Assembly (NCBI RefSeq): GCF_030013205.1
Contig: NZ_CP122648.1
Length of the DNA: 64,000 bases
Source of the DNA: Escherichia coli
Lineage (GTDB): Bacteria; Pseudomonadota; Gammaproteobacteria; Enterobacterales; Enterobacteriaceae
Direction: 5' to 3' (one strand)
Part shown: positions 19,318-39,944 of the stretch, piece by piece
How positions within the stretch are numbered: position 1 is the stretch's first letter
How the letters are laid out: every line of letters begins with the position of its first letter
The notes under the pieces: generated by a model
Database searches by the model: none
Told to the model about the DNA's origin: nothing
What the model saw: only the letters and a program-made list of their open reading frames with translations
Made by a program: the position numbers and the translations under genes

Positions 19318-19458
19318 TTACTGCTTACACTGTAAGAACGCCGCAAACTCCGCTCCCCAGAATCTCATCCGTATTTCGCACAGCGAACCGTGCAACATCC
19401 AGATGATGAGGATTGCCGTCACGCAGAACGTGATGGCCGTAAGCGATTTTTGCGACAT
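19318..19458 (-). CDS. Hok/Gef-family type I toxin (46 aa)
   Basis: MSQKSLTAITFCVTAILIIWMLHGSLCEIRMRFWGAEFAAFLQCKQ: single TM helix then SLCEIR..R....E.AAF signature shared by Hok/Gef/HokA; below the ORF-track size cutoff; coordinates hand-derived. Confidence 0.7.
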   Translation of the reverse strand: MSQKSLTAITFCVTAILIIWMLHGSLCEIRMRFWGAEFAAFLQCKQ

Positions 19459-19648: not shown

Positions 19649-19909
19649 TTAATTTTGAGGTAAGGGCAAACTCATCTGATTGTTTCCTTTGTGTGAAGCT
19701 GGCAGTTCATGCCACGGGATACCTTCTGAAGAGTGAGCGCCGGAGGCGTGTTTCGATGTGAATTTATGGAAAGCTTCCAGTGTTGAGAAGCATACACCGC
19801 ATTCTAGGTTGTTACATTGGTAATACTTTTGCCGCACGGTGTTTGAATCATTTTCCGGACGACTGGTGCGGATTCGGGCAGATGCGCCACAAAGCGGACA
19901 ACGGAACAT
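19649..19909 (-). CDS. ogr: Ogr/Delta-family zinc-finger late-gene activator (P2 Ogr-like)
   Basis: MFRCPLCGASARIRTSRPENDSNTVRQKYYQCNNLECGVCFST...: CxxC ... CxxxxC pattern and spacing of P2 Ogr. Confidence 0.8.
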   Translation of the reverse strand: MFRCPLCGASARIRTSRPENDSNTVRQKYYQCNNLECGVCFSTLEAFHKFTSKHASGAHSSEGIPWHELPASHKGNNQMSLPLPQN

Positions 19910-20119: not shown

Positions 20120-20434
20120 GTGGTTGCTGATCATGAATATTTGTATTGGAAGATAATTGCAATGAGCGAAAGAGTGTTTGAGAAAGAACTATATTCTGAA
20201 TGGGTTATACGCAATAGTCTATATTGGATGACTCCGCTTACTCGATGGAAACTCCATGAAGACGTTTCCCACTGGATAATCTCTTTTGAAAACGATAATC
20301 CCAAATTCCTTTATGAATTCGATAGGCTGCTTAATGATTACTCTTTGCGAGAAAAGCTACAGCATAAAACAGGGGCGTTGAGAGACTCTATTGTCCATAA
20401 AGTGCTTCGCAGTGTTGATGAGAGGCTTTCATAA
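20120..20434 (+). CDS. hxsD: His-Xaa-Ser system protein HxsD (LLNDYxLRE-motif protein)
   Basis: 104-aa ORF containing ...FDRLLNDYSLREKLQHK...; stop overlaps hxsB start (TAATG); true start may be the internal ATG near 20162. Confidence 0.7.
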   Translation: MVADHEYLYWKIIAMSERVFEKELYSEWVIRNSLYWMTPLTRWKLHEDVSHWIISFENDNPKFLYEFDRLLNDYSLREKLQHKTGALRDSIVHKVLRSVDERLS

Positions 20435-21822
20435 TGGAATTGATGCCATTTAATTTTGACAGATTGCCTAATGGACAGGTGTTTATAAGCAACCTTGCAG
20501 GTTTTCATCATTTCATTGGTGAGCAAGACCTTATTGATCTTTCTGATGAGCGAATTAGTTCGGAGCAATCAAACGTGCTAGAAAGTAAGCTTTTCATAAC
20601 CAGTGAAAGCTCATCTGCTATAACTCCCTATGCTTTAAGTTCTGCTTTTGCAAAACGATTGATGAATGAACTGGCTGTCAGGCCAATTTTCATGATTGTA
20701 CCCACATTACGTTGTGACCATACATGCAAGTATTGCCAGGTTAGTAGAGCTTCTGTTAATGCCTCAGGTTACGACCTAAATCCTGAGCTCATCCCCGATA
20801 TTATTTCGGCTATTAAAAAACTATCAACGCCACCTTACAAAATAGAGATACAGGGTGGGGAGCCTCTCTTGCGGTTTGATTTAATTCAGAACATCTATGA
20901 TCAATGTGCTGAAACGCTGGGAAGAACCAATTTTGAGATGGTGGTGGCATCAAGTCTGTCTGTCTTGAATGAGGATATGATTGAATGGTCGAGAGACCGG
21001 AACATAACGTTCTCTGTGTCGCTTGATGGTGAGGAAGTTGTTCACAACAGTAATCGAATTCTTGGTCGTGGGCTTGCGTACAGTAGAACAGTGTCAGGGG
21101 TAGAGGCTATCAAACACTCTTTAGGTGCTGGCCGCGTTGCAACGGTTACTACAGTTACTAAAGAGCTTATCAGACGTCCTGAATCGATTGTTCAGGCTCA
21201 CTTGTCTCTTGGGCTCAAGGACATGTTTATCCGACCTGTTAGTCCCTATGGGTTTGCACAAAAAGCTTCTTTCACCTTTTCTATGGACGAATACTTCAGC
21301 TTCTATGCCTCGTTGATAGATGAAATCCTTAAGATTAATAATGAAGGGATAAGGGTTGTGGAACATTCGGCCTCCATTCATCTGAAAAGGATCTTCAATC
21401 CCGGTTTTAGTGGCTATGCGGATTTAAAGTCTCCAAGTGGAGTCGTGCTTAACAGTATTCTTTTCAATTATGACGGTCGAGTATATGGTAGCGATGAGAG
21501 CCGTATGTTGCAGAAGGTGAATCCTGAAACGGAGTTCAGTGCGGGTGAAGTTAAGACGCTATCATTTTCTGATAGTCCTTACTATAACGCAGTATTGACT
21601 TCATCGTTCAATTTTGCTCTGCCAGGTTGTGATACATGTGCATATCAACCATTTTGTGGTTCAGATCCATGCCAGAACATAAGTGTACAGGGTGAGCCTG
21701 TCGGCGATAGGAGTCGTTCAACGTTTTGTCAATATCACAAGGGGATGTTCAGGTATCTGATGAACTGCATCTCAGAGGGTGGTTCGAAGGCTGAGATGCT
21801 AAAAGGATGGGCATATGTCTGA
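20434..21822 (+). CDS. hxsB: Radical SAM / SPASM-type maturase, first of the pair (HxsB-like)
   Basis: 462 aa; CxxxCxxC in ...PTLRCDHTCKYCQVS...; C-terminal Cys cluster ...LPGCDTCAYQPFCGSDPCQNI...; overlaps the neighbouring genes. Confidence 0.8.
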   Translation: MELMPFNFDRLPNGQVFISNLAGFHHFIGEQDLIDLSDERISSEQSNVLESKLFITSESSSAITPYALSSAFAKRLMNELAVRPIFMIVPTLRCDHTCKYCQVSRASVNASGYDLNPELIPDIISAIKKLSTPPYKIEIQGGEPLLRFDLIQNIYDQCAETLGRTNFEMVVASSLSVLNEDMIEWSRDRNITFSVSLDGEEVVHNSNRILGRGLAYSRTVSGVEAIKHSLGAGRVATVTTVTKELIRRPESIVQAHLSLGLKDMFIRPVSPYGFAQKASFTFSMDEYFSFYASLIDEILKINNEGIRVVEHSASIHLKRIFNPGFSGYADLKSPSGVVLNSILFNYDGRVYGSDESRMLQKVNPETEFSAGEVKTLSFSDSPYYNAVLTSSFNFALPGCDTCAYQPFCGSDPCQNISVQGEPVGDRSRSTFCQYHKGMFRYLMNCISEGGSKAEMLKGWAYV

Positions 21823-22927
21823 GGTTATCAGGAACGATATCTTTCATTTTGCTTCTACAGAGAACGTGCCCACGGGGTTCTATCGGTTATGCAAACAAAA
21901 ACCAGTGAACCCTTTATTCTTTTTGCCCAATTTGCTAGTAGTTGCTGAGGGCAATAATGATGCCATTCCACCATGCTTTGATTTCTCTGTTATTAGCACT
22001 GAATTATTTGAGTCAATTGAAGATGGAGATATTGGGATAATCAACAATGGCAATATGATACGCGTTATTCTGTCACGCAAAGCCAACCATAATACTGTCT
22101 TAGTTACGGAACGCTGCAATAACTTGTGTCTGTTTTGTTCGCAGCCACCAAAGAAAATAAATGATGACTGGCTACTTACCCAATCAGCTCTTGCTATAGC
22201 TTCATTTGGCTTGAACGGAGTTGTTGGGGTCAGCGGTGGTGAACCTTTGCTATATGGGGATGACTTCCTTCACTTCATTGATTTTATCATCGAGAATTCA
22301 CCAGATACTGCTTTACATGTTTTAACAAACGGACGCAAATTTGCTGATACCAACTTTACACAGGAAATGGCAAAGCGAAGCAAAAAGATCAAAATCACCT
22401 TTGGTATCCCGCTCTACTCATCAAGACCACTTGTGCATGATCATCTGGTAGGGAGTGATGGCGCATTTAATGAAACGGTTAAAGGGTTAATCAATGCAGG
22501 AAACTTGGGGATTAATATCGAACTTAGAGTTATTCCTACACTGGCTAACTATACCGAATTGGATGATATCGTAGAATTCGCTGGCCGTGTGTTCTCCAAC
22601 ATCAATCAGATTTCCCTTATGGGGTTGGAGCCTATCGGTTGGGCACGAAAAAACTGGTCCACCATCTTCATTGATCACAGTAGTTATAGTGAGAAAATAA
22701 TCTCTGCCATAGACGCTGCATACAGGTCAGGCATACCTCTGACAATTTTTAATTATCCTTTGTGTTATCTTCCTGAAAGGGCTAGGGAGCTTGCTGTTCA
22801 GTCGATCTCTGATTGGAAAAATTACTATCCAAAAGAATGTGATGAATGTACTCAGAAGCCTTCCTGTGCTGGCTATTTCAGTTCCTCAAAAGGCCGTTTT
22901 CATCAATCACCGAGACCAATTTTATGA
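21815..22927 (+). CDS. hxsC: Radical SAM maturase, second of the pair (HxsC-like)
   Basis: 370 aa; CxxxCxxC in ...VTERCNNLCLFCSQP...; C-terminal Cys-rich ...CDECTQKPSCAGYF...; 8-nt overlap with hxsB, ATGA overlap with hxsA. Confidence 0.8.
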   Translation: MSEVIRNDIFHFASTENVPTGFYRLCKQKPVNPLFFLPNLLVVAEGNNDAIPPCFDFSVISTELFESIEDGDIGIINNGNMIRVILSRKANHNTVLVTERCNNLCLFCSQPPKKINDDWLLTQSALAIASFGLNGVVGVSGGEPLLYGDDFLHFIDFIIENSPDTALHVLTNGRKFADTNFTQEMAKRSKKIKITFGIPLYSSRPLVHDHLVGSDGAFNETVKGLINAGNLGINIELRVIPTLANYTELDDIVEFAGRVFSNINQISLMGLEPIGWARKNWSTIFIDHSSYSEKIISAIDAAYRSGIPLTIFNYPLCYLPERARELAVQSISDWKNYYPKECDECTQKPSCAGYFSSSKGRFHQSPRPIL

Positions 22928-23559
22928 AAAAGTTTAATTTTGCTGCTCTACTTCCGGGATTTTTGGCTCTCAACAATTCTGTATGGGCAAGCGATTCATC
23001 TACAGGAGCGAGTGATTTACCTGGTATGACTCTTAATGAGCATGATTTAGTGATAGCTCCACTTAACACGGAAGTCCCATTTTATATCGCAGGGCATCGA
23101 AGCCATAGTTCTCATAGGAGCCATAGCTCTCATAGATCCTCATCAGGTGGTGGATACTATGGTGGAAGTACCCCCTATTATCCAAAAACATACAGCTCAC
23201 CAAGTTCATCTGGTTCTTCAAGTTCAGGTGCAAGTTCCTCATCGTCCTCTTCCTCGGTGCGTGCACTTCGTTCTAACGATAATAATAGAACCACTAACAC
23301 GAGTTCTGTTGGAACTTCAGAGGTTAACCGTACGAGTAATGGGCTTGCTTCTGATGCAGAGAAACGTAAGCGATTGATTATGCGAGTTCAGTTCGCATTG
23401 CTGGACAGGGGATTTTATAACGGAAATATTGACGGCATAATGGGGCCATCCACAAGGCTGTCTGTGAAAAATTACCGCATTGCGAATGGATTACCGATTC
23501 CTGCAACTGAAACACTCGACGCACAATTGTTAAATTCTTTGAATATATTAGCTCGCTAA
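22924..23559 (+). CDS. hxsA: His-Xaa-Ser repeat protein (HxsA-like), secreted, with peptidoglycan-binding-like C-terminal domain
   Basis: From internal ATG of track ORF 22846..23559: MKKFNFAALLPGFLALNNSVWA (signal peptide), HRSHSSHRSHSSHRS (5 HXS repeats), Ser/Gly-rich linker, C-terminal ...RVQFALLDRGFYNGNIDGIMGPSTRLSVKNYRIANGLPIPATETLDAQLL. Confidence 0.8.
   Translation: MKKFNFAALLPGFLALNNSVWASDSSTGASDLPGMTLNEHDLVIAPLNTEVPFYIAGHRSHSSHRSHSSHRSSSGGGYYGGSTPYYPKTYSSPSSSGSSSSGASSSSSSSSVRALRSNDNNRTTNTSSVGTSEVNRTSNGLASDAEKRKRLIMRVQFALLDRGFYNGNIDGIMGPSTRLSVKNYRIANGLPIPATETLDAQLLNSLNILAR
23097..23135 (+). repeat. Short in-frame tandem DNA repeat encoding the His-Xaa-Ser units
   Basis: agccatagttctcatagg / agccatagctctcataga-like 18-nt units; coordinates approximate. 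Confidence 0.6.
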
Positions 23560-23869: not shown

Positions 23870-23899
23870 GTAAGCGACTCGTCAGAACCGTATTGATAT

Positions 23900-25471
23900 T
23901 TACTGAGAGCTCAGATCAACTTTCCAGGGCAACAGATCGCGTACCCGGTTTGCCGGCCAGTCCTGGATATGTTCAATGACGTAACGCAGCCACTTTTCTG
24001 GCTCCACATTGTTCAGACGGCATGTGCCGATCAGCGAGTACAACACCGCCGCATGTTCACCACCGCTGTCGGAACCCGCGAACATCCAGTTTTTCCGGCC
24101 TACGGCCACTCCCCGTAAGGCGTTCTCTGCGGTGTTGTTGTCGATTTCCACCCAGCCATTACTGCAGTACACGTTCAGTGCATCCCACTGTTTCAGCAGG
24201 TATGCGAACGCTTTTGCCGTATCTGAGTGACGCGACAGTGTTTTCATCTGTTGCTGTATCCAGTCATACAGTGACTGCATCAGTGGCGCGGCTCTGGCTT
24301 TTCTTGCCGCCAGACGCTGTTCTGCTGAACAGCCCCGGACCTCTGCCTCGATGGCATACAGTTCACCGATACGCTGCAGGGCTTCCGTGGTGATGTAGGT
24401 GGGCGCTCTTGCATGCACATCGTGGATTTTTCTCCGGGCATGAGCCATACACGCGGCTTCCGTTATTCTGCCGGATTCGTATAACGCCCGGTAACCACCG
24501 TAAGCATCGGCCTGAAGCACACCGCTGTAACCGGCCAGGTGATTTTGTGGATGGATACCTTTCCGGTCCGGACTGTACGCGAACCAGACCGCCGGGGGCA
24601 TCTGTGAACCGGCGTTACGGTCATCACGGACGTAGACCCACAGCCGGGCTGTCCGGGTTTTACCGCTGCCCGGCTCCTGGACCGGGACGGGGATATCATC
24701 AGCATGGACTTTACCGGGCATCAGCACATACTGGCGCAGGACGTCATACAGCGGCTCCAGCAGTTCAGCAACAGCACCTGTCCAGCGCCCCAGTGTGGCA
24801 CGGCTCAGCTCCACTCCCTGACGACGGTATATTTCTGACTGGCGGTATAACGGCAGATGGTCTGCATATTTCCCGGTGACAACATGGGCCAGAAGCCCCG
24901 CTCCGGCATAACTGCGTGCAATGGGTTTTGAAGGTACTGGTGCCTGTACGATATGGTCGCACCGGCAACAGGCCTGTTTCGGACGTTGTGTTTCGATAAC
25001 CTTAAAGGCGCTGCTGATAAGCTCCAGTTGCTCTGACACATCACATCCCAGAGAACTGAGTTCACCACCACAGGCAGGACAGCATTCCTCTTCCGGCCGG
25101 ATAACCCGGGTTTCACGGGGAAGTGAGGCCGGTAACGGTTTACGGGCTGAAGACTGGCGCAGGGCGGATGGCAGTACCGGGTCATATTGCTCACCCAGCG
25201 TTTCCGCCATTTCTTCCTGAAGTGCGCTGATTCGCTCCTGTGCTTCCTGTATCTGCCGTTCGGTTTTTGCACGAAGTTTTTCTGAGCTTTTACCGAACTG
25301 CATACGTTGCAGTTTCGCAACCAGCGCCTTCAGCCGGTTGATTTCGGAAGCATAAGCCGCCACCCGCTGTGAGAGCAGGCGGTTGTATTCAGCCATCTGG
25401 CGGATGGTGTCCTGTTGCGTCTGCAACAGTGCCCGCAGGCGGGCGTTCTCATGAGCAAGTGAGGTGTCCAT
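23900..25471 (-). CDS. IS66-family transposase TnpC
   Basis: 523 aa with leucine-zipper-like N-terminus, Cys cluster (CPACGG...CRCDH) and C-terminal ...[23 protein letters not shown]... typical of IS66 TnpC. Confidence 0.85.
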
Positions 25472-25490
25472 ATCCTCACTTTACAACGGG

Positions 25491-25838
25491 TTATATGCGG
25501 ATTCCAGCGCGTTCCGTTCGTTTCGGGTGCTTCCAGTTGATACCTTCAAGAAGCATGGATAACTGAGCCGGAGTAAGGTGCACCTTGCCGTCACGGGTGA
25601 CTGGCCAGACGAAGCGGCCCCGCTCCAGGCGTTTGGTGAAGAGGCACAGTCCGTCACTGTCAGCCCACAACACTTTTATCTGGTCACCCCGGCGTCCGCG
25701 GAAGATGAACAGGTGTCCGGAGAACGGGTCATCCTTCAGGACGTTCTGAACTTTTGATGCCAGGCCGTTAAAGCCATTTCGCATATCGGTGATACCTGCA
25801 ACCAGCCAGATACGCGAACCTGCAGGGAGAGATATCAT
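25491..25838 (-). CDS. IS66-family accessory protein TnpB
   Basis: 115 aa, ...RIWLVAGITDMRNGFNGLASKVQNVL... Confidence 0.8.
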   Translation of the reverse strand: MISLPAGSRIWLVAGITDMRNGFNGLASKVQNVLKDDPFSGHLFIFRGRRGDQIKVLWADSDGLCLFTKRLERGRFVWPVTRDGKVHLTPAQLSMLLEGINWKHPKRTERAGIRI

Positions 25839-26515
25839 CAGTGGCTGCTCCCTTTTATTTCGCGGATAAGTGTCTGTAATAACGCCGGCGTCAGTTTACC
25901 TTTAAGCCTGAGAGTTCCGGCCGGCAGAACCAGCTCACAACACAGACTGTCGGACGGTGTATTTATCTGCTCTGGTTCCTGTGCGGGGGCCGGGATTTTA
26001 TTATCCGGCTCCGGCGTTAACGTCACGGGAAGCAGTGCCGGCATATTTTTTCCGGAAGGCAGCAGGCCACCTTTCCGGTATTGATGGCGCCAGTTGAAGA
26101 GCAGGTTATCGTTGATTCCGTTTTCCCGGGCGATCTGCGCCACACAGGCTCCGGGCTGCAGTGACTGCTCCACTAAGGCGATTTTAAACTCATAAGGGAA
26201 GTTGGGCCGCCGGGGACGTTTTTTTACCACGGGGGCTTCGGATATAACGGTGCTTTCAGGACGTACGACTGGTACCGTGGAAAATTGTCCGTAAAGGCAG
26301 GCATCAAGTTCCTGCTCCGACATGCCTGCGGGCAAAGGCCACGAAAGGCCAGCTCTCCGAAAGCGCACGAACATACTACAAACTGTTGATTTTGGTACAC
26401 CCAGGCGACGCCCGGCCACAACCCGGGGTAAATGTTCTTCAAAGTGAAGACGTAAAGCTTCAGTGATCCAGGTCCGGTGTTTCATACGATAGTGTCCATT
26501 AAAAATGATGGACAT
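25838..26515 (-). CDS. IS66-family accessory protein TnpA (start uncertain; track ORF may be over-extended)
   Basis: ...RPRRPNFPYEFKIALVEQSLQPGACVAQIARENGINDNLLFNWRHQYRKGG... Confidence 0.65.
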   Translation of the reverse strand: MSIIFNGHYRMKHRTWITEALRLHFEEHLPRVVAGRRLGVPKSTVCSMFVRFRRAGLSWPLPAGMSEQELDACLYGQFSTVPVVRPESTVISEAPVVKKRPRRPNFPYEFKIALVEQSLQPGACVAQIARENGINDNLLFNWRHQYRKGGLLPSGKNMPALLPVTLTPEPDNKIPAPAQEPEQINTPSDSLCCELVLPAGTLRLKGKLTPALLQTLIREIKGSSH

Positions 26516-26568
26516 TATTTTTGTAGAGCCGGAGGAAACAGACCAGACGGTTTAAATGAGCCGGTTAC

Positions 26569-26576
26569 ATGCATTT
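26569..26576. repeat. Target-site duplication (right copy) of the IS66-family element
   Basis: ATGCATTT. Confidence 0.7.
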
Positions 26577-27266
26577 CGGGGTAGAGTTCTGCACGCCCAC
26601 GTGCCAGCGTGATGGAAAATGATGCGGCTCCGCGTTGTAGCTGCTGCCACTTTGCCGCCGCTGCGCGTCTTGCTGCCTGCTCGTTCTGATAAGTCTTGCG
26701 TAACACAAACACATTGCCTTCCGCACCTTCCATATAATCACCTTCACGGCTGCTGCTTTTCTCCTTTTTAGGTTTTGGTGGTTTGCGGCGTTTCACACTG
26801 ACTTTTTTCTTTTTCCCGTAATTAAGATCAAGCCAGTAAGCGCGTACCCCCGTATACGCTTCGCGGTCAGCAATGCGGAACTGATGGCGATCGCCGCTGT
26901 TGCGCGTGATGGCGAACGATGGCAACGGCTGGCCCTGTGCGTTCACGCCACCGCCTGGCATGATGAATAACAGATTATCGCTTTTTACCGTGGTGATTGC
27001 GCCCAGCATTTCCGCCATGCGCGTAAGGAAGGACATGTCGCTTTCTTCGGTCTGGTCGGCGTGGTCGATTTCGATATCCATCAGCATTTCGCTGATTTGC
27101 GGTTTCAGGCCGTACCGATGAGCGATGGCGGATACCACACGCTCAACGGTCACATCATGCCAGGACACCTCACGTTTAACGTTAAATTCATCCCGAAAAT
27201 CTGCGCTTCTGGCTGAAACAGTCAGCCTGTCCGGCGGTCCTTCGTGAGCGATTTCATCAACAATTA

Positions 27267-27685
27267 GACTGGCCCCCTGAATCTCCAGACAACCAATATC
27301 ACTTAAATAAGTGATAGTCTTAATACTAGTTTTTAGACTAGTCATTGGAGAGCAGATGATTGATGTCTTAGGACCGGAGAAACGCAGACGGCGTACTACA
27401 CAGGAAAAGATCGCTATTGTTCAGCAGAGTTTTGAACCGGGAATGACGGTCTCCCTTGTTGCCCGGCAACACGGTGTGGCAGCCAGCCAGTTATTTCTCT
27501 GGCGCAAGCAATACCAGGAGGGAAGTCTTACTGCTGTGGCCGCAGGAGAGCAGGTCGTTCCTGCCTCTGAACTTGCTGCTGCCATGAAGCAGATTAAAGA
27601 ACTCCAGCGCCTGCTCGGCAAAAAAACGATGGAAAATGAACTCCTTAAAGAAGCCGTTGAATACGGGCGTGCAAAAAAAGTGGAT
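27267..27685 (+). mobile_element. IS2 left-end fragment (IRL plus 5' part of insC/orfA), truncated near IS2 position ~416
   Basis: TAGACTGGCCCCCTGAATCTCCAGACAACCAATATCACTTAAATAAGTGATAGTCTTAATACTAGTTTTTAGACTAGTCATTGGAG... then Ins[57 protein letters not shown]...[10 protein letters not shown]; homology ends just after the A-run; remainder of IS2 absent. Confidence 0.8.
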
Positions 27686-30247
27686 ACAGTGCTCAGCGAA
27701 AAACAACAAAAGCTGATGCAGCAGTTAAGCACCCGGCTTGAACGCCTGAATGAATCGCGCACACGGGAAATTCAGAAAATGCGGGAGCTTGGCGGAGAGC
27801 TGAAACGCCACGGCATTTCCCTGACAGGCAGCGATAACACCATCCAGCAGGCCATCAGACGCACCGAACAGTACAACAACCAGCTTGAACGCGAACGGCA
27901 GGCGCTTGCGCGTGTAACACGGGCGCGTGAGCGGTATTCGCGCGCGCAGGAAACAGCGGGAAAACTGAAAACAGGTGGTGCGCTGGCAATTGGTGCGGCA
28001 ACGGCGGGCGGCTATGCTGCCGGGCGTTTTTTGCAGCCTGCGATCGGGTTCGGCAAAGAGATGTCCCGCGTTCAGGCACTGACGCGAATCGACAAAAACA
28101 GCCCGCAGTTTAAGGCGCTGCGTGAGCAGGCGTTAAAACTTGGCTCTGAAACACAGTTTACTGCGAGTGATGCCGCCAGTGGGCAGAGCTTTCTGGCAAT
28201 GGCTGGTTTTACTCCGCAGGCCATTCAGGCCGCATTGCCCGGTGTTCTTAATATGGCGCTGGCAGGTGGCGTCGAACTCGGCGAGACGGCTGATATAGGC
28301 TCCAATATCCTCACACAGTTCAACCTGACAGCCGATCAAATGGACCGTGTTGGCGATACGCTGACAGCAGCATTCACCCGGACCAATACTGATTTACGCG
28401 CGCTGGGCGAAACCATGAAGTATACCGGTCCGGTTGCCGCAAAACTTGGTATCAGTCTTGAAGAAGCGGCGGCCATGGCCGGGATGCTTGCCAATAATGG
28501 TCTTCGCGGAAGCGATGCTGGTACGGCCATGCGCGCAAGTCTGTCCCGCCTTGCATCACCGCCAAAAGCTGCGGCTGATGCACTGAAAGAGCTGGGGGTG
28601 TCAGTTGCTGACGCCAGAGGCAAAATGCGCCCGATGGAGGATGTGCTGCTTGATCTCTATAAGGCGACACAAAAATACGGACAGGTGGACCAGGTTTCCT
28701 TCTTCAAGGACATCGCCGGAGAAGAGGCGTTCGTTGGTTTGCAGACGCTTGTTGCGGCGGCTGGTTCAGGAGAGCTGCAAAAACTGACCAGAGAATTGCA
28801 GGGGGCAAGGGGAGAGGCCGATCGCGTCGCAAAAGTAATGGCCGATAATCTTGATGGGGACCTGAAAAATCTCGACAGCGCATGGGAAGGTCTTCGTATT
28901 CGCATCAGTGATCTGGTTGACGGTCCGCTGCGTTCTGTCACGCAGTGGCTCACGCGGGTGCTTGAAAAAATCACCTCGCTGGCGCAGGCCCATCCGGTAC
29001 TGACGCGCCAGCTACTGATAGCAGGCGGTGCGTTGCTGGCAATGACTGCAACGATTGGCTCGTTGTCGCTGGTTATTGGGGTGCTTTACGGGAAGCTGGC
29101 CACCCTGCGTCTTGGTTTTGACATTCTTACCCGGTCAATGAATGTCGTCAGGGTGTTGCCTGCGCTGTGGGGAATGGTGACGGGTTCCGTTTCTTTACTG
29201 GGAGGCGCCATCGGGGCGTTGTTCAGTCCGGTTGGTCTTATCGTGGCTGCGCTTGCCGGAGCTGCCGTTCTTATCTGGAAATACTGGGATCCCATCAGGG
29301 CATTTTTTGCCGGGGTGTTCAGCGGGATTATGGAAAGGCTGACCCCGTTGCGCGAAACCTTTGAACGGTTTGGTCCTGTTTTTGACACAATCGGAAGCGG
29401 GATCAGCCAGGTGTTTAACTGGTTTAAATCGCTGCTGTCACCGATGGAGTCCAGCAAGGAAACGCTGGATAAATGTACCAGTGCTGGCGAGATATTCGGT
29501 AACGTTCTTGGCGGTGCGTTACAGCTTGTTCTGACACCTGCAAAAATGCTACTGGATACGCTGGCGTGGATACTTGAAAAACTTGGCGTCCTTCCGGATG
29601 AAGCGGAAAGGGCGCGCAAGAAAATCGAAGACGCACAGCGTGCGGCCATTCTTCAGGACAAGGTTGCCTTGCTTCAGGGTGACCTGGCGAAAATCAATCC
29701 GCCGAAGCCTGTGGAAAATGGCAATGGCACCGGAGGTAATAAACCCAAAGACAACAAACCGCTCACAGACAGCAATACCGGGACGCTACGCAGACTCAGC
29801 AAAATTGCTGATAACACAGGTAAGCTGGTTGATGAGACGAAAAAACGCATTGGCCCCGGCGATATTGTCTTTAAGAACCTGCCCCGCGCACTTGCTGTTC
29901 GTGGAGAGTGGCAGGAGCGGAAGATTGCGCAGGTCAGTAAGCCTGCCCCCGCAATTAATATCACACCCGTGGTCCCGGCTCCGCTGCCTCCGGCGCTGGT
30001 CCCTGTTGTTGCGGCCAGCTCCCGCCCGGTGGCGGAGGCCATACGATCTCCAGTGGCATCAGTTCCTGTAACTTCCCGTAACCGGGAGCCTGTTGCCTCC
30101 GGATTTGGTGGTGAAATTCATGTTCATCTGCATAACGTTGTTACGCAGAATCCCCGCGAACTGGCGAAACTGGTCGGTGAAATGGTCAGGGCAGAAATGG
30201 AACGGCGCGCCCGTGCCGGGCGTGGCAGTTTTTACGATAAAGATTGA
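27356..30247 (+). CDS. Chimeric ORF: IS2 InsC N-terminal ~110 codons fused in frame to a P2 gpT-like tail tape measure protein
   Basis: Track ORF 27311..30247 (978 aa); after ...EYGRAKK the sequence continues as tape-measure-like (..[71 protein letters not shown]..). Confidence 0.75.
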
Positions 30248-30253
30248 GGAGTC

Positions 30254-30748
30254 ATGGCCATGATGATGATCTACGGCATGTTTGTTTTTGAGCTGCGCAC
30301 GCTGCCGCATCAGCAGTTACAGCAAAACAAAAGCTGGCGGCATGTGAAAAATGAACGCGTTAACCGTTCAGCAAGCTGGCAGTATATCGGTGCAGGTGAT
30401 GATCGCATCGTTCTTTCTGGTATGCTTTATCCTGAAATTACAGGTGGCGAAGTGTCGCTGTCGCTGCTGACCACGCAGGCGTATACAGGACGCCCCTGGC
30501 CTCTTATTGATGGCGTCGGGCAGATTTACGGCATGTATGTCCTGACCGAAACGAATACGACCCGTTCCGAGTTTGATCGCTACGGTAAGGCGAAAAAGAT
30601 AGAATTTTCACTGACCCTTGAACGCTGTGATGAGGATTTGCGGGAGCGCCTGCAATCCTCATCGTTCAGCGATATGCTGTCCGGCTTCAAAGATAAAGTG
30701 ACATCATCCCTTAACAGCGCGGCCAGTTCAGTTAAAGGGCTGTTCTGA
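30254..30748 (+). CDS. P2 gpU-like tail protein
   Basis: MMMIYGMFVFELRTLPHQQLQQNKSWRHVKNERVNRSASWQYIGAGDDRIVLSGMLYPEITGGEVSL... resembles P2 gpU (MMVLGMFVFELRT...). Confidence 0.8.
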   Translation: MAMMMIYGMFVFELRTLPHQQLQQNKSWRHVKNERVNRSASWQYIGAGDDRIVLSGMLYPEITGGEVSLSLLTTQAYTGRPWPLIDGVGQIYGMYVLTETNTTRSEFDRYGKAKKIEFSLTLERCDEDLRERLQSSSFSDMLSGFKDKVTSSLNSAASSVKGLF

Positions 30749-30918: not shown

Positions 30919-31482
30919 ATGCTGAATAATAGAGATATGAATATTAATGAACTTAAAGATTGTATTCACTATGAAGTAATCGGTAGCGAGCGTCCTTTCT
31001 CCTGGCGAAAGGCAATTGTTCGCGCAATAAAACATAGAAGAGTTCGTTATTTATTTTGGTGGCGCATAGCCAAATACCTTTTTGATAAAGGCGGATACTG
31101 TCGGAAGATTGCGGGGAAAATAGAACGTTTCATTCTTGATAAATATAATGTAACAGTCCCTTTAACTGTAAATATAGGGAAAGGCTTTGATATTTCTTAT
31201 CTCAACAGTGTTGTTATCGGTCACAAAGTAACAATCGGTGAAAATTGTTCAATAAAACCAGGGGTAACTATTGGGCTGCGTGGTGATTTTAATGATATGG
31301 ATATTGTTATAGGACATAATGTGACCATTGGTTGTAATGCCACCATTCTTGGTGGCAAAGTGCGTATAGGAAACAATGTCACAATAGGTGCTCATGCATT
31401 GGTATTGCATGATATTCCAGATGATTCAACATTCATCACTAAATTTCAGTCTGAAGTTATCTGCTCGTCCTCCCGCACATAA
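30919..31482 (+). CDS. Hexapeptide-repeat (left-handed beta-helix) acetyltransferase, AT-rich cargo gene
   Basis: Repeats of [LIV]-G-x-x-x-x-I-G ([22 protein letters not shown]...[33 protein letters not shown]); low GC; 3' end overlaps tfa 3' end. Confidence 0.75.
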
Positions 31483-33724: not shown

Positions 33725-34000
33725 AGGGCGGGTAGTTCAAGAAGCTGTTCCGGAGCGTTTGTTGATGATCCCGATCTGCATAAAAATATTCTTATTTGCT
33801 ATCCGTATGGTAACTATGAATATGACAATATTATCTATGTTGAAAAGAAAACTAATGCATTGGGCGTTGTTGTGACGTATGCACAGACTGCACGAGACGA
33901 TGCTGAATAAGATACTACAGAGATAGTCCACTTTTTTGTTTATTTGTCGGGATAAAAACAAATTACCCCGACTCACCATGTATTAATCTTCCGCTTTAAG

Positions 34001-34642: not shown

Positions 34643-35221
34643 TTGGCCGCTTTTGCGGGCTTCCGGTGTAAGGCTGTCCAGCCAGGCGCATGCTTCGCTT
34701 TCGTTCTTGACGGCCGCAGGCTTCAGATAGAAACTTATCTGAGTAAGTCTGAATGTGTTCAGTTGCTGGATGCACTGGCTGAAAATCCCGATGAACGGCT
34801 GGCTGTCGAAATCCTTCTGTCGACCGGGGCGCGATGGGGCGAGGTAGCGGTACTGGAGCAGCGCCGTGTTCTTCATTGTCGAATCACTTTTTCAAAAACG
34901 AAGAACAGCAAAAACCGTACCGTTCCTATTTCTGAAAGCCTGTTTGAAAAGATCAAAAAACGGGGCGGGAAACTGGTGTTTCCGACGCTGGATTATCCAT
35001 TGGTTCGCGATGTCATCAAAACGGTCGCATCTGATGTTCCTGACGGCCAGGCTGTTCATGCGCTGCGCCACACCTTCGCCAGTCATTTCATGATGAACGG
35101 CGGCAATATTCTGACGCTCCAGAAAATTCTGGGGCACGCAAAGATTCAGACAACGATGATTTATGCCCATCTTGCGCCGGATTACTTGCAGGATGCGGTG
35201 AGATTTAATCCAATAGCTTGA
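34643..35221 (+). pseudogene. int: Tyrosine recombinase (phage integrase) C-terminal catalytic-domain fragment
   Basis: ...LSTGARWGEVA...NRTVPIS...HALRHTFASHFMMNGGNILTLQKILGHAKIQTTMIYAHLAPDYL (R, HxxR, catalytic Y); ~190 codons versus ~330 for full length; N-terminal domain not found in frame. Confidence 0.7.
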
Positions 35222-38984: not shown

Positions 38985-39230
38985 TATGTCGAAAAATTGA
39001 CGGCGATGATACATCGCCGTCAATTTACTCCAGAATACGGTAGTATTTTGCAGACAAAAATTCCGTAAATGGATTATTCGTTTATAATCAGGATAATCTA
39101 AAAAAAGGACCCCTGAAAAAGTGGTTAACATGGAACAAATGAAAGTTACTCCTTCTGTAATTGTTATGTCTTATGGCCTCATCCCTTTTAGCCGGATACT
39201 GAAAAACATCCTTCGAGAGGGACGGTTACC

Positions 39231-39944
39231 ATGAAGATTTTTTTGGAGAATCTTTATCATTCTGATTGCTATTTCCTGCCGATAAGAGATAACCAGCAAG
39301 ACCTTGTCGGCGTTGAGTTAATTACCCATTTCTCCAGTGAAGATGGTACGGTTCGTATCCCGACGAGTCGGGTTATAGCGCAACTTACCGAGGAGCAACA
39401 TTGGCAATTATTTTCAGAGCAGTTGGAATTACTAAAATCATGCCAACACTTTTTTATTCAACATAAACTCTTTGCCTGGCTTAATTTAACGCCACAAGTG
39501 GCTACTTTATTATTAGACAGGGATAATTACGCAGGCGAACTATTAAAATATCCGTTTATTGAACTGTTGATTAATGAGAATTACCCGCATCTCGATGAAG
39601 GAAAAGATAATCGCGATCTTTTTTCCTTATCGCAAATGTATCCCCTTGTGTTAGGTAATTTGGGCGCAGGCAATAGCACAATGAAAGCGGTTTTTGATGG
39701 TCTTTTCACCCGCGTCATGCTGGATAAAAGTTTTATTCAGCAACAAATCACGCATCGCTCCTTCGAACCGTTTATTCGTGCGATCCAGGCGCAAATTTCC
39801 CCATGTTGCAATTGCATCATCGCGGGGGGCATTGATACGCCAGAAATAATGGCACAGATTACCCCCTTTGATTTCCATGCTCTCCAGGGATGCCTGTGGC
39901 CTGCCGTTCCCATAAATCAGATAACGACGTTGGTTCAGCGATAA
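39231..39944 (+). CDS. ydiV: EAL-like anti-FlhD4C2 factor YdiV
   Basis: 237 aa; synteny between nlpC and selO. Confidence 0.85.
   Translation: MKIFLENLYHSDCYFLPIRDNQQDLVGVELITHFSSEDGTVRIPTSRVIAQLTEEQHWQLFSEQLELLKSCQHFFIQHKLFAWLNLTPQVATLLLDRDNYAGELLKYPFIELLINENYPHLDEGKDNRDLFSLSQMYPLVLGNLGAGNSTMKAVFDGLFTRVMLDKSFIQQQITHRSFEPFIRAIQAQISPCCNCIIAGGIDTPEIMAQITPFDFHALQGCLWPAVPINQITTLVQR

Follow-up and report, generated by a model that had tools for sequence, protein, structure and literature searches.

A truncated IS2 end joined to a tape-measure gene in a decaying Peduoviridae prophage of porcine Escherichia coli

The 64-kb stretch of Escherichia coli DNA analysed here (the window) contains an open reading frame in which the first part of an IS2 gene runs without a stop into a phage tape-measure gene. 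This raises the question whether the locus holds a hybrid gene or the remains of two broken ones, and by which events the two parts came to lie next to each other.

Anatomy of the junction

The window is 100% identical to positions 2289162-2353161 of the chromosome of E. coli ETEC1748 (NZ_CP122719.1). For comparison, K-12 IS2A, a full-length copy from strain L73 of a 1331-bp IS2 variant common in E. coli, and locus L002 of strain F344, an IS2-free relative, were used as references. The junction between phage gene D and the left end of IS2 (IRL) was found in 14 of the 5,426 genomes searched, all of them complete genomes of porcine E. coli, originating from Belgium, France and South Korea. They represent a narrow lineage of ETEC/oedema-disease strains that are near-clonal, with 0-8 SNPs per 34-50 kb. 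Its recurrence in 14 genomes, none of which carries a complete IS2 at this site, shows that the junction is not an assembly artefact, and the observation made in the earlier note is confirmed.

A BLAST search of the complete window with K-12 IS2A as query returned a single match, in which IS2 nt 1-421 correspond to positions 27265-27686 on the plus strand (94.8% identity). No IS2 sequence beyond nt 421, i.e., neither orfB encoding the DDE transposase nor IRR, was detected anywhere in the 64 kb. Compared with the L73 copy, the closest full-length variant, the fragment is identical save one extra A in the slippery run and thus comprises 422 instead of 421 nt. In agreement with the earlier note, which was based on the letters alone, the alignments to both references show that IS2 is cut to about 420 bp, that homology ends just past the slippery A run and that the remainder of the element is absent. 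The fragment begins at 27265, not 27267, and stops at 27686, 7 nt past the run at 27673-27679. From 27265 onward, IRL is the same as in K-12 IS2A and the L73 variant. Its left flank reads ACAAT, directly followed by TAGACTGG, while the right end and the right flank, with any second copy of a 5-bp target duplication, are deleted.

The remnant shares IRL, the promoter region, the Shine-Dalgarno sequence, the ATG, orfA codons 1-108 and the position of the slippery run with both full-length copies and then continues for 7 nt beyond the run. It differs from them in comprising only nt 1-421, in lacking orfB and IRR and, in the window assembly, in carrying A7G rather than A6G. It is a fragment, not an element, and cannot transpose. 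The weak extended -10 promoter of IS2, the domains of OrfA and the difference between A6G and A7G have been described (PMC3219604). A P_IRL-like region is present at 27307-27348 (plus strand), which is identical to K-12 IS2A and differs at two positions from the P_IRL-containing oligonucleotide of that study. A scan of 27000-27800 for sigma-70 and terminator consensus sequences yielded nothing, which is no surprise given the weak extended -10 type of this promoter and hence uninformative. The orfA Shine-Dalgarno sequence GGAG (27347-27350) precedes insC'/orfA' (27356-27679, plus strand), which keeps 108 of 121 codons. These encode the HTH DNA-binding domain (Pfam HTH_Tnp_1, E value 1.8e-17) and the leucine-zipper-like dimerisation segment (residues 73-100; domain limits from PMC3219604). 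PGAP calls the region a partial transposase pseudogene.

Homology to the intact tape-measure gene T (F344, L002 8759-11566, 935 aa) restarts at 27685 in T codon 83, or at 27682 with one mismatch, and the TA at 27685-27686 is common to IS2 and T. The truncated gene T' comprises codons 83-935 plus the stop codon (27685-30247, plus strand; 99.9% identity to F344 T from L002 9001). The native 5' end of T is thus missing, as had been proposed. In some strains PGAP lists T' as a partial pseudogene next to the insC' pseudogene. The Pfam domain PhageMin_Tail is found over the full length of the model (E value 1.6e-56). The designation of the protein as P2 gpT-like is only distantly appropriate: amino acid identity is 35% to T of the P2 type (Peduovirus) but 97.9% to the tape measure of Escherichia phage 500465-2 (genus Gemsvirus, Peduoviridae), with which T' also shares the hydrophobic central segments and the adjacent downstream gene U. 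The latter is intact and colinear with F344 (30260-30748, plus strand, PGAP annotation). Unlike gpT of the Peduoviridae, T' has neither residues 1-82 nor a start of its own, and it is not accompanied by the sheath and tube genes or by the chaperone genes E and E'; FI and FII are likewise absent upstream.

On the other side of the junction resides the middle part of tail gene D (late control D / VgrG-like; 26568-27264, minus strand; 99.8-100% identity to F344 L002 2651-2871 and 5571-6054). ISCro1 interrupts the gene toward its 3' end, and the left end of IS2 does so toward the 5' end, at about codon 92. D homology, which reaches the insertion point as CATCAACAAT, ends exactly at IS2 nt 1. The prophage is P2-related (Peduoviridae, Gemsvirus-like) and located between ihfA and btuC. 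In P2, the genes FI to T, U, D and ogr all lie on one strand; phage 500465-2 and 1,356 of the 5,426 E. coli genomes carry D in the orientation opposite to FI-FII-E-E'-T-U. The divergence of D (minus) and FI (plus) is thus the native state of this prophage family rather than a rearrangement. This disposes of an inversion as source of the junction, and the missing part of IS2, whose presence elsewhere could have signalled such an event, was not found in the 64-kb window. With the arrangement being native, a check for inverted repeats flanking a supposed FI-U inversion in F344 became moot.

Length of the slippery run and the reading frame

In the window assembly, the open reading frame at 27311-30247 encodes 978 aa from an upstream GTG, just as the earlier note had described it. 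From the IS2 ATG at 27356, which is preceded by GGAG, the chimera encompasses 963 aa with the order InsC(1-108)-Val-Asp-T(83-935) (27356-30247, plus strand). A single reading frame results because seven A residues at 27673-27679 (plus strand) place insC' and T' in one frame. The canonical IS2 run is A6(G), and the 14 junction genomes show A7 in nine (the window and eight sisters, among them ETEC1748 and ETEC4068) and A6 in five (K_EC180, W13-16, P15-25, ETEC4069 and ETEC1701). The in-frame state can consequently not be regarded as a stable property of the junction. In the A6 genomes, orfA' stops 11 codons past the run and nine past the join, T' lies in the -1 (orfB) frame, and the T frame is open for just six codons 5' of the join. 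In ETEC4068, where T' has suffered an additional in-frame deletion, PGAP annotates the correspondingly shorter chimera as a coding sequence (WP_282842278.1).

The seventh A corresponds exactly to A7G, a frame-fusing IS2 mutation made in the laboratory (PMC3219604). In the engineered A7G OrfAB construct (PMC3219604 and references therein), it likewise brings the downstream -1 frame into the register of orfA. In that construct, however, orfA is read into orfB to give an active transposase, whereas here a truncated tape measure follows and the seventh A may not be genuine.

The 963/978-aa reading frame could itself be an assembly artefact, with a true run of A6G, an insC' that stops soon after the join and T' out of frame. 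We consider this possible, though less likely than not. A6 occurs in all three junction genomes from outside the Belgian project. ETEC4069 shows 0 SNPs relative to the window over 50 kb, and the sole differences are the lengths of two A runs, each by one base, one of them being the run at 27673-27679. The other disrupts the conserved yniA gene in the window, an allele present in only four of 5,423 genomes, all from one project, which identifies it as a miscall. K_EC180, an A6 genome, contains an additional G-run miscall in ydiV. Furthermore, when a phylogeny was attempted, the only informative SNP (window position 30422) conflicted with the A6/A7 pattern. On the other hand, the known miscalls shorten the runs (A7 to A6, G6 to G5), a bias that would favour A7 as the true state, and nine assemblies agree on A7. 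A nearby A7 run (27611-27617) is constant in seven of seven junction assemblies checked directly. Note also that about 995 records hold the IS2 variant at at least 99% identity and that one full-length copy alone matches the A7 query exactly, indicating that over-calling in such a context is not systematic. A literature search on the sequencing chemistry of the Belgian ETEC assemblies gave no match for the strain names and nothing relevant on the topic.

Expression and possible function

Any product of the locus would arise from the weak P_IRL promoter. With A7G, orfA' would read straight into T'. With A6G, T' would be reachable only by -1 frameshifting and without the natural downstream hairpin. 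In K_EC180, the slippery sequence A AAA AAG is indeed followed by a -1 frame that is open into T'. In native IS2, a hairpin (-38.3 kcal/mol, z -2.3) is predicted to begin 7 nt downstream of the run, while nothing comparable is predicted after the run in the chimera (-17.9 kcal/mol, z -0.45). The putative product would combine the DNA-binding and dimerisation domains of InsA with a tape measure deprived of sheath, tube and chaperones, and we expect the fusion to have no function.

A more far-reaching proposal holds the seventh A to be genuine and inherited from the IS2 copy that entered D, with an excess of transposase favouring the loss of orfB and the remnant now acting as a toggling InsA-tape-measure repressor or titrator of IS2 ends in the porcine lineage. 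If true, this would be a natural case of the laboratory A7G mutation with OrfAB as the main product, and a fusion of the InsA HTH and dimerisation segment to a tape measure would be switched on and off by A6/A7 slippage, titrating or repressing IS2 ends in trans. We regard this as very improbable.

Very improbable, too, is the idea of a retained functional gene, be it a trans-acting repressor of IS2 or a DNA-tethered derivative of the tape measure, with A6/A7 slippage as a switch. It is true that promoter region, Shine-Dalgarno sequence, ATG, HTH and dimerisation segment are all intact and that run length differs among near-clonal strains, but this variation is confounded with sequencing noise. 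Likewise, T' forms a 2.5-kb open frame in 14 of 14 junction genomes, and an extra deletion in ETEC4068 and ETEC4075, which takes another 1,044 bp out of T' across a 6-bp overlap, is in frame, which could hint at retention. However, the strains are too alike for the open frame to be a sign of selection, as decay is not yet expected at this level of divergence, and the chance of two in-frame outcomes is about 1/9. In addition, all partner tail genes of T' are deleted, the junction occurs in one narrow lineage only (14 of the 5,426 genomes), and the surrounding prophage is visibly eroding. Apart from sheath and tube genes, the prophage also lacks capsid and replication genes, and the insertion of ISCro1 into D is a further sign of decay. 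The window is devoid of a 4.6-kb ParM-gpA-int block that P15-25 retains. Judged by these sequence differences, decay is continuing within the porcine lineage.

Origin of the junction and its significance

Relative to F344, L002 6055 to about 9003 is replaced by IS2 nt 1-421. Compared with the IS2-free relative, about 2.95 kb of prophage sequence (the 5' end of D, FI, FII, E, E' and the 5' end of T) as well as IS2 nt 422-1331 are lost. We conclude, with a probability of roughly 0.85, that the locus is a non-functional IS2-T' scar, left by insertion of IS2 into D and subsequent illegitimate deletion in a degrading Peduoviridae prophage. In the first step, which the clean junction shows, an IS2 variant transposed into D at about codon 92, with its left end toward the 3' part of D and orfA toward the divergent FI-FII-E-E'-T-U operon. 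The anatomy of the locus suggests that a second step fused IS2 nt 421 with T codon 83 through one illegitimate deletion of about 3.9 kb, which removed the remainder of the element with orfB and IRR together with the prophage genes up to and including the first 82 codons of T. The outcome is that the IS2 promoter region, Shine-Dalgarno sequence, ATG and orfA codons 1-108 stand in front of T', which was joined in the orfB (-1) frame.

That IS2 first inserted in the ordinary way and that illegitimate recombination followed is indicated by an endpoint within the element (nt 421/422) and by an overlap at the join that is limited to the 2-bp TA, within a GGRTA motif matched at four of five positions. 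The IS2 breakpoint coincides with the 5' foot of a strong, GC-rich hairpin, the one predicted 7 nt past the run in native IS2, and this structure may have promoted replication slippage during the deletion. Slippage between CGCACG motifs flanking both breakpoints was considered and rejected, as neither copy is kept in the product. Among the 5,426 genomes, we found no intermediate that carries a full IS2 in D and no IS2-T junction in another context, so that the order and number of the events proposed here are probable rather than proven.

Adjacent deletions are a known effect of IS elements. The earlier suggestion of an IS2-mediated deletion or inversion deserves comment, and its first half stands insofar as a deletion has taken place. 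That the IS2 transposase carried out this deletion, or an inversion between two IS2 ends, is highly unlikely even though an IS2 end sits at the rearrangement and forms a clean IRL-D transposition junction: transposase-made deletions and inversions end at the IS terminus and leave the element whole, whereas the break is at nt 421/422 of 1331, orfB and IRR are lost, and the opposite orientation of D and T is older than IS2, being found in the 1,356 genomes without the element. Moreover, the right end of IS2 serves as donor and the left end as target in transposition (PMC3219604); an isolated IRL cannot initiate the process.

The scar left by insertion and deletion closely resembles generic IS-associated prophage decay in E. 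coli, in which IS insertion is likewise followed by microhomology deletions, giving rise to adjacent partial pseudogenes in PGAP annotation. There is no substantive difference; the one curiosity is that the IS2 frameshift site lies 7 nt before the break and that T' was joined in the orfB frame. The IS2-T' junction is ordinary gene wreckage, and its biological weight is very small, as it adds one more scar of IS insertion and microhomology deletion. It does call for caution in annotation: a 2.9-kb 'hybrid ORF' can hang on one homopolymer base that is called differently in near-identical long-read assemblies, and PGAP is inconsistent at the locus, where it reports either a pair of pseudogenes or an intact coding sequence for a 'tape measure protein', depending on the strain. 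Finally, the analysis documents the divergence of D from FI-U as the normal architecture of a Peduoviridae prophage family that is very common in E. coli.

The truncated IS2 end and its two junctions

The window is identical at every base to positions 2289162-2353161 of the chromosome of ETEC1748 (NZ_CP122719.1), an isolate from a pig in Belgium. A BLAST search with K-12 IS2A against the whole window gave one match, IS2 nt 1-421 at 27265-27686 with 94.8% identity. Homology to the prophage gene D ends exactly at IS2 nt 1 (...CATCAACAAT|TAGACTGG), which is a normal transposition junction, and the second junction falls inside IS2. When the window, IS2A and an intact tape-measure gene (T) are aligned together, homology switches at GTGGA|TA|CAGTG: IS2 identity extends to 27686 and T identity begins at 27685 (27682 if one mismatch is allowed), leaving a 2-bp TA overlap within a 4/5 match to GGRTA. 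Both analyses confirm the proposal of the earlier note that an IS2 end of ~420 bp is joined to a tape-measure gene. The whole of the 2-kb stretch from D through the IS2 fragment into the 5'-truncated T (T') is matched in 12 complete genomes, and a version with an additional deletion in another two; a 241-bp probe for the junction of D with the left IS2 end (IRL) matches exactly those 14. The host was a pig or wild boar in every case, and the countries of sampling are Belgium, France (O139:H1) and South Korea. The earlier note had allowed for a complete IS2 to emerge on re-assembly; none of the 14 genomes has one at the D site.

The ORF listing gives a 978-aa frame on the plus strand (27311-30247). 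The start codon of IS2 itself, ATG at 27356 with GGAG at 27347-27350, is also where the partial transposase annotated by PGAP begins. Counted from this ATG, the ORF comprises 963 aa, i.e., InsC residues 1-108, a Val-Asp pair encoded by IS2 bases in the -1 frame and T residues 83-935, and Pfam assigns it an N-terminal HTH_Tnp_1 and a full-length PhageMin_Tail domain. The description "P2 gpT-like" needs narrowing: T' is 97.9% identical to the tape measure of Gemsvirus and 35% identical to the P2-type T.

Prophage context and origin of the deletion

Surrounding the junction, between ihfA and btuC, is a degraded prophage related to P2. In the IS2-free relative, strain F344, the gene order is D (-), followed by FI, FII, E, E', T and U (+), a cargo acetyltransferase gene and G, H, I, J, W and V (-). 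By BLAST of the window against F344, the 421-nt IS2 end stands in place of F344 positions 6055 to ~9003, which contain FI, FII, E and E' together with the first ~91 codons of D, the intergenic region between D and FI, and T codons 1-82. The P2-type record has FI-FII-E-E'-T-U-D-ogr on a single strand, and in the prophage family of the window D is directed away from FI. Because 1,356 of 5,426 complete E. coli genomes (an intact D was found in one of them) share this divergent D|FI junction, and so does the classified Escherichia phage 500465-2 (Peduoviridae, Gemsvirus), which is colinear with F344 over D, the baseplate genes and FI-U, it is native for D and T to stand head to head as they do in the window, and the inversion considered in the earlier note is rejected.

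Judged from the sequence, the simplest history would have two steps: insertion of IS2 into D, and then a single illegitimate deletion that would have taken IS2 nt 422-1331 along with ~2.95 kb of prophage. Deletions made by a transposase end at an IS terminus. Since the second junction is internal to IS2, and the donor end of IS2 is the right end, IRR (PMC3219604), "IS2-mediated" is the wrong term for the second step. Intact IS2 (nt ~422-494; 1922-1994 of the locus inspected) carries a strong predicted hairpin (-38.3 kcal/mol, z -2.3) with a 9-bp GC-rich outer stem, GCGCACGCG/CGCGUGCGC, starting 7 nt past the A6G run, a spacing as expected for a frameshift stimulator. The breakpoint (27686/27687) lies exactly at the 5' foot of this predicted hairpin, which may have favoured a template switch during replication.

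Further elements occupy the prophage. ISCro1 (IS66 family, tnpA-tnpB-tnpC; 23870-26567) sits in D with an 8-bp duplication, ATGCATTT. The ISCro1 of F344 (2872-5570 of its locus) is an independent insertion in D, in the same orientation and 212 bp away, with the duplication GTTTGCGG; the proximity of the two suggests that ISCro1 either prefers targets in this region or hopped over a short distance. At the prophage edge, adjoining ihfA, lies a Hok/Gef toxin gene (19318-19458). A His-Xaa-Ser radical-SAM cassette, hxsD-hxsB-hxsC-hxsA (20162-23559), is cargo flanked by ogr (19649-19909, -) and the D remnant, and the acetyltransferase gene ("transferase"/serine acetyltransferase-like; 30937-31482) occupies a P2-type moron position, with U on one side and the tail-fibre assembly gene on the other. 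Another genome of the family carries ISEcp1-blaCTX-M-15 in the hxs slot and a family-9 glycosyltransferase (26255-27433 of its locus) in the acetyltransferase slot.

Length of the A run and the reading frame

The canonical slippery window of IS2 is A6G, and an engineered A7G fuses orfA to the -1 frame, the fusion becoming the main product (PMC3219604). The window has A7G at 27673-27679; six A's instead of seven are the sole difference between the full-length 1331-bp IS2 variant of strain L73 and the fragment. A7 is found in nine of the 14 junction genomes (ETEC1748, 4067, 4068, 4070, 4071, 4075, 4079, 6333 and 6334), all from one Belgian project, and A6 in five (K_EC180, W13-16, P15-25, ETEC4069 and ETEC1701). 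With A6, insC' terminates and T' lies in the -1 frame, where orfB would be, a frame that is open for just 6 codons upstream of the join. The continuous ORF that had been proposed is present in the window sequence, and yet an in-frame chimera is not a fixed property of the junction, whether or not A7 is real.

A7 could be homopolymer noise in the assembly. ETEC4069 shows 0 SNPs to the window in 50 kb and differs only in the lengths of two A runs, the one at 27673-27679 and one in yniA. There, the window has A6 at 6174-6180 in place of the A7 of nearly all E. coli, which breaks a conserved gene; only 4 of 5,423 genomes have this allele, each of them an assembly of the same Belgian ETEC project, and it splits the near-identical ETEC6333 and ETEC6334, so that it is probably a miscall. 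The same probably holds for ydiV of K_EC180 (39230-39942 of its locus), frameshifted by G5 for G6, a change that other lineage members do not have. Moreover, the A6/A7 distribution is at odds with the sole informative SNP, at 30422. However, the miscalls on record have too few bases, not too many, which would favour A7, and a nearby A7 run (27611-27617) does not vary among the seven junction assemblies that were inspected directly. Over-calling of the A run is not systematic here, because among ~995 records with this IS2 variant over the run only one full-length copy, on a plasmid of ETEC1720, matches the A7 query exactly. We consider A7 to be real in ETEC1748 with a probability of roughly two-thirds.

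The ETEC1720 plasmid copy (1592-2821 of its locus) is annotated as an unbroken 409-aa transposase, a "frame-fused" OrfAB that is either natural or artefactual. An IS2 copy in strain 2017.10.01CC combines A7 with a G4-to-G3 change that compensates for it 27 nt further downstream. hxpB (4368-5037) carries an annotated frameshift in all lineage members examined, and this frameshift may be real.

Expression and continuing decay

By analogy with IS3-family OrfA proteins, the fusion product might bind IRL. The predicted product would retain the InsA HTH and the dimerisation segment of residues 73-100 (limits from PMC3219604). At all but two positions, the P_IRL region agrees with the published sequence of the weak extended -10 IS2 promoter (PMC3219604), and a simple sigma-70 scan found no match at the locus. 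Read-through is unlikely because the genes upstream of the chimera are oriented the opposite way. In A6 genomes, a -1 shift is predicted to yield the same fusion; the native downstream hairpin is absent. As the sheath, tube and chaperone genes are deleted, T' cannot build a tail. Junction strains differ by only 0-8 SNPs per 34-50 kb, and the open T' frame is therefore uninformative with regard to selection. PGAP calls two partial pseudogenes in A6 and A7 states alike and annotates a chimeric CDS only in ETEC4068, where it is listed as intact (WP_282842278.1, 615 aa, "phage tail tape measure protein").

ETEC4068 and ETEC4075 carry a further 1,044-bp in-frame deletion in T' at a 6-bp overlap (window 27768-28811; 7363-7368 of the ETEC4068 locus). 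The window lacks a 4.6-kb block encoding ParM, the replication endonuclease gpA and the full integrase that P15-25 has kept; this deletion lies at 34736-34739, and of the integrase a fragment remains at 34763-35221. H, the tail-fibre gene, is 5'-truncated at ~33735, and P15-25 has an IS1 at window ~33986-33993. The T' deletion, the loss of the ParM-gpA-int block and ISCro1 in D show that the prophage of this lineage is still eroding. The observation in the earlier note is confirmed and its interpretation partly supported: insC' and T' are already marked partial in RefSeq, and what joins them is an ordinary junction of pseudogenes within a decaying prophage, its sole twist being that the frame is set by homopolymer length.
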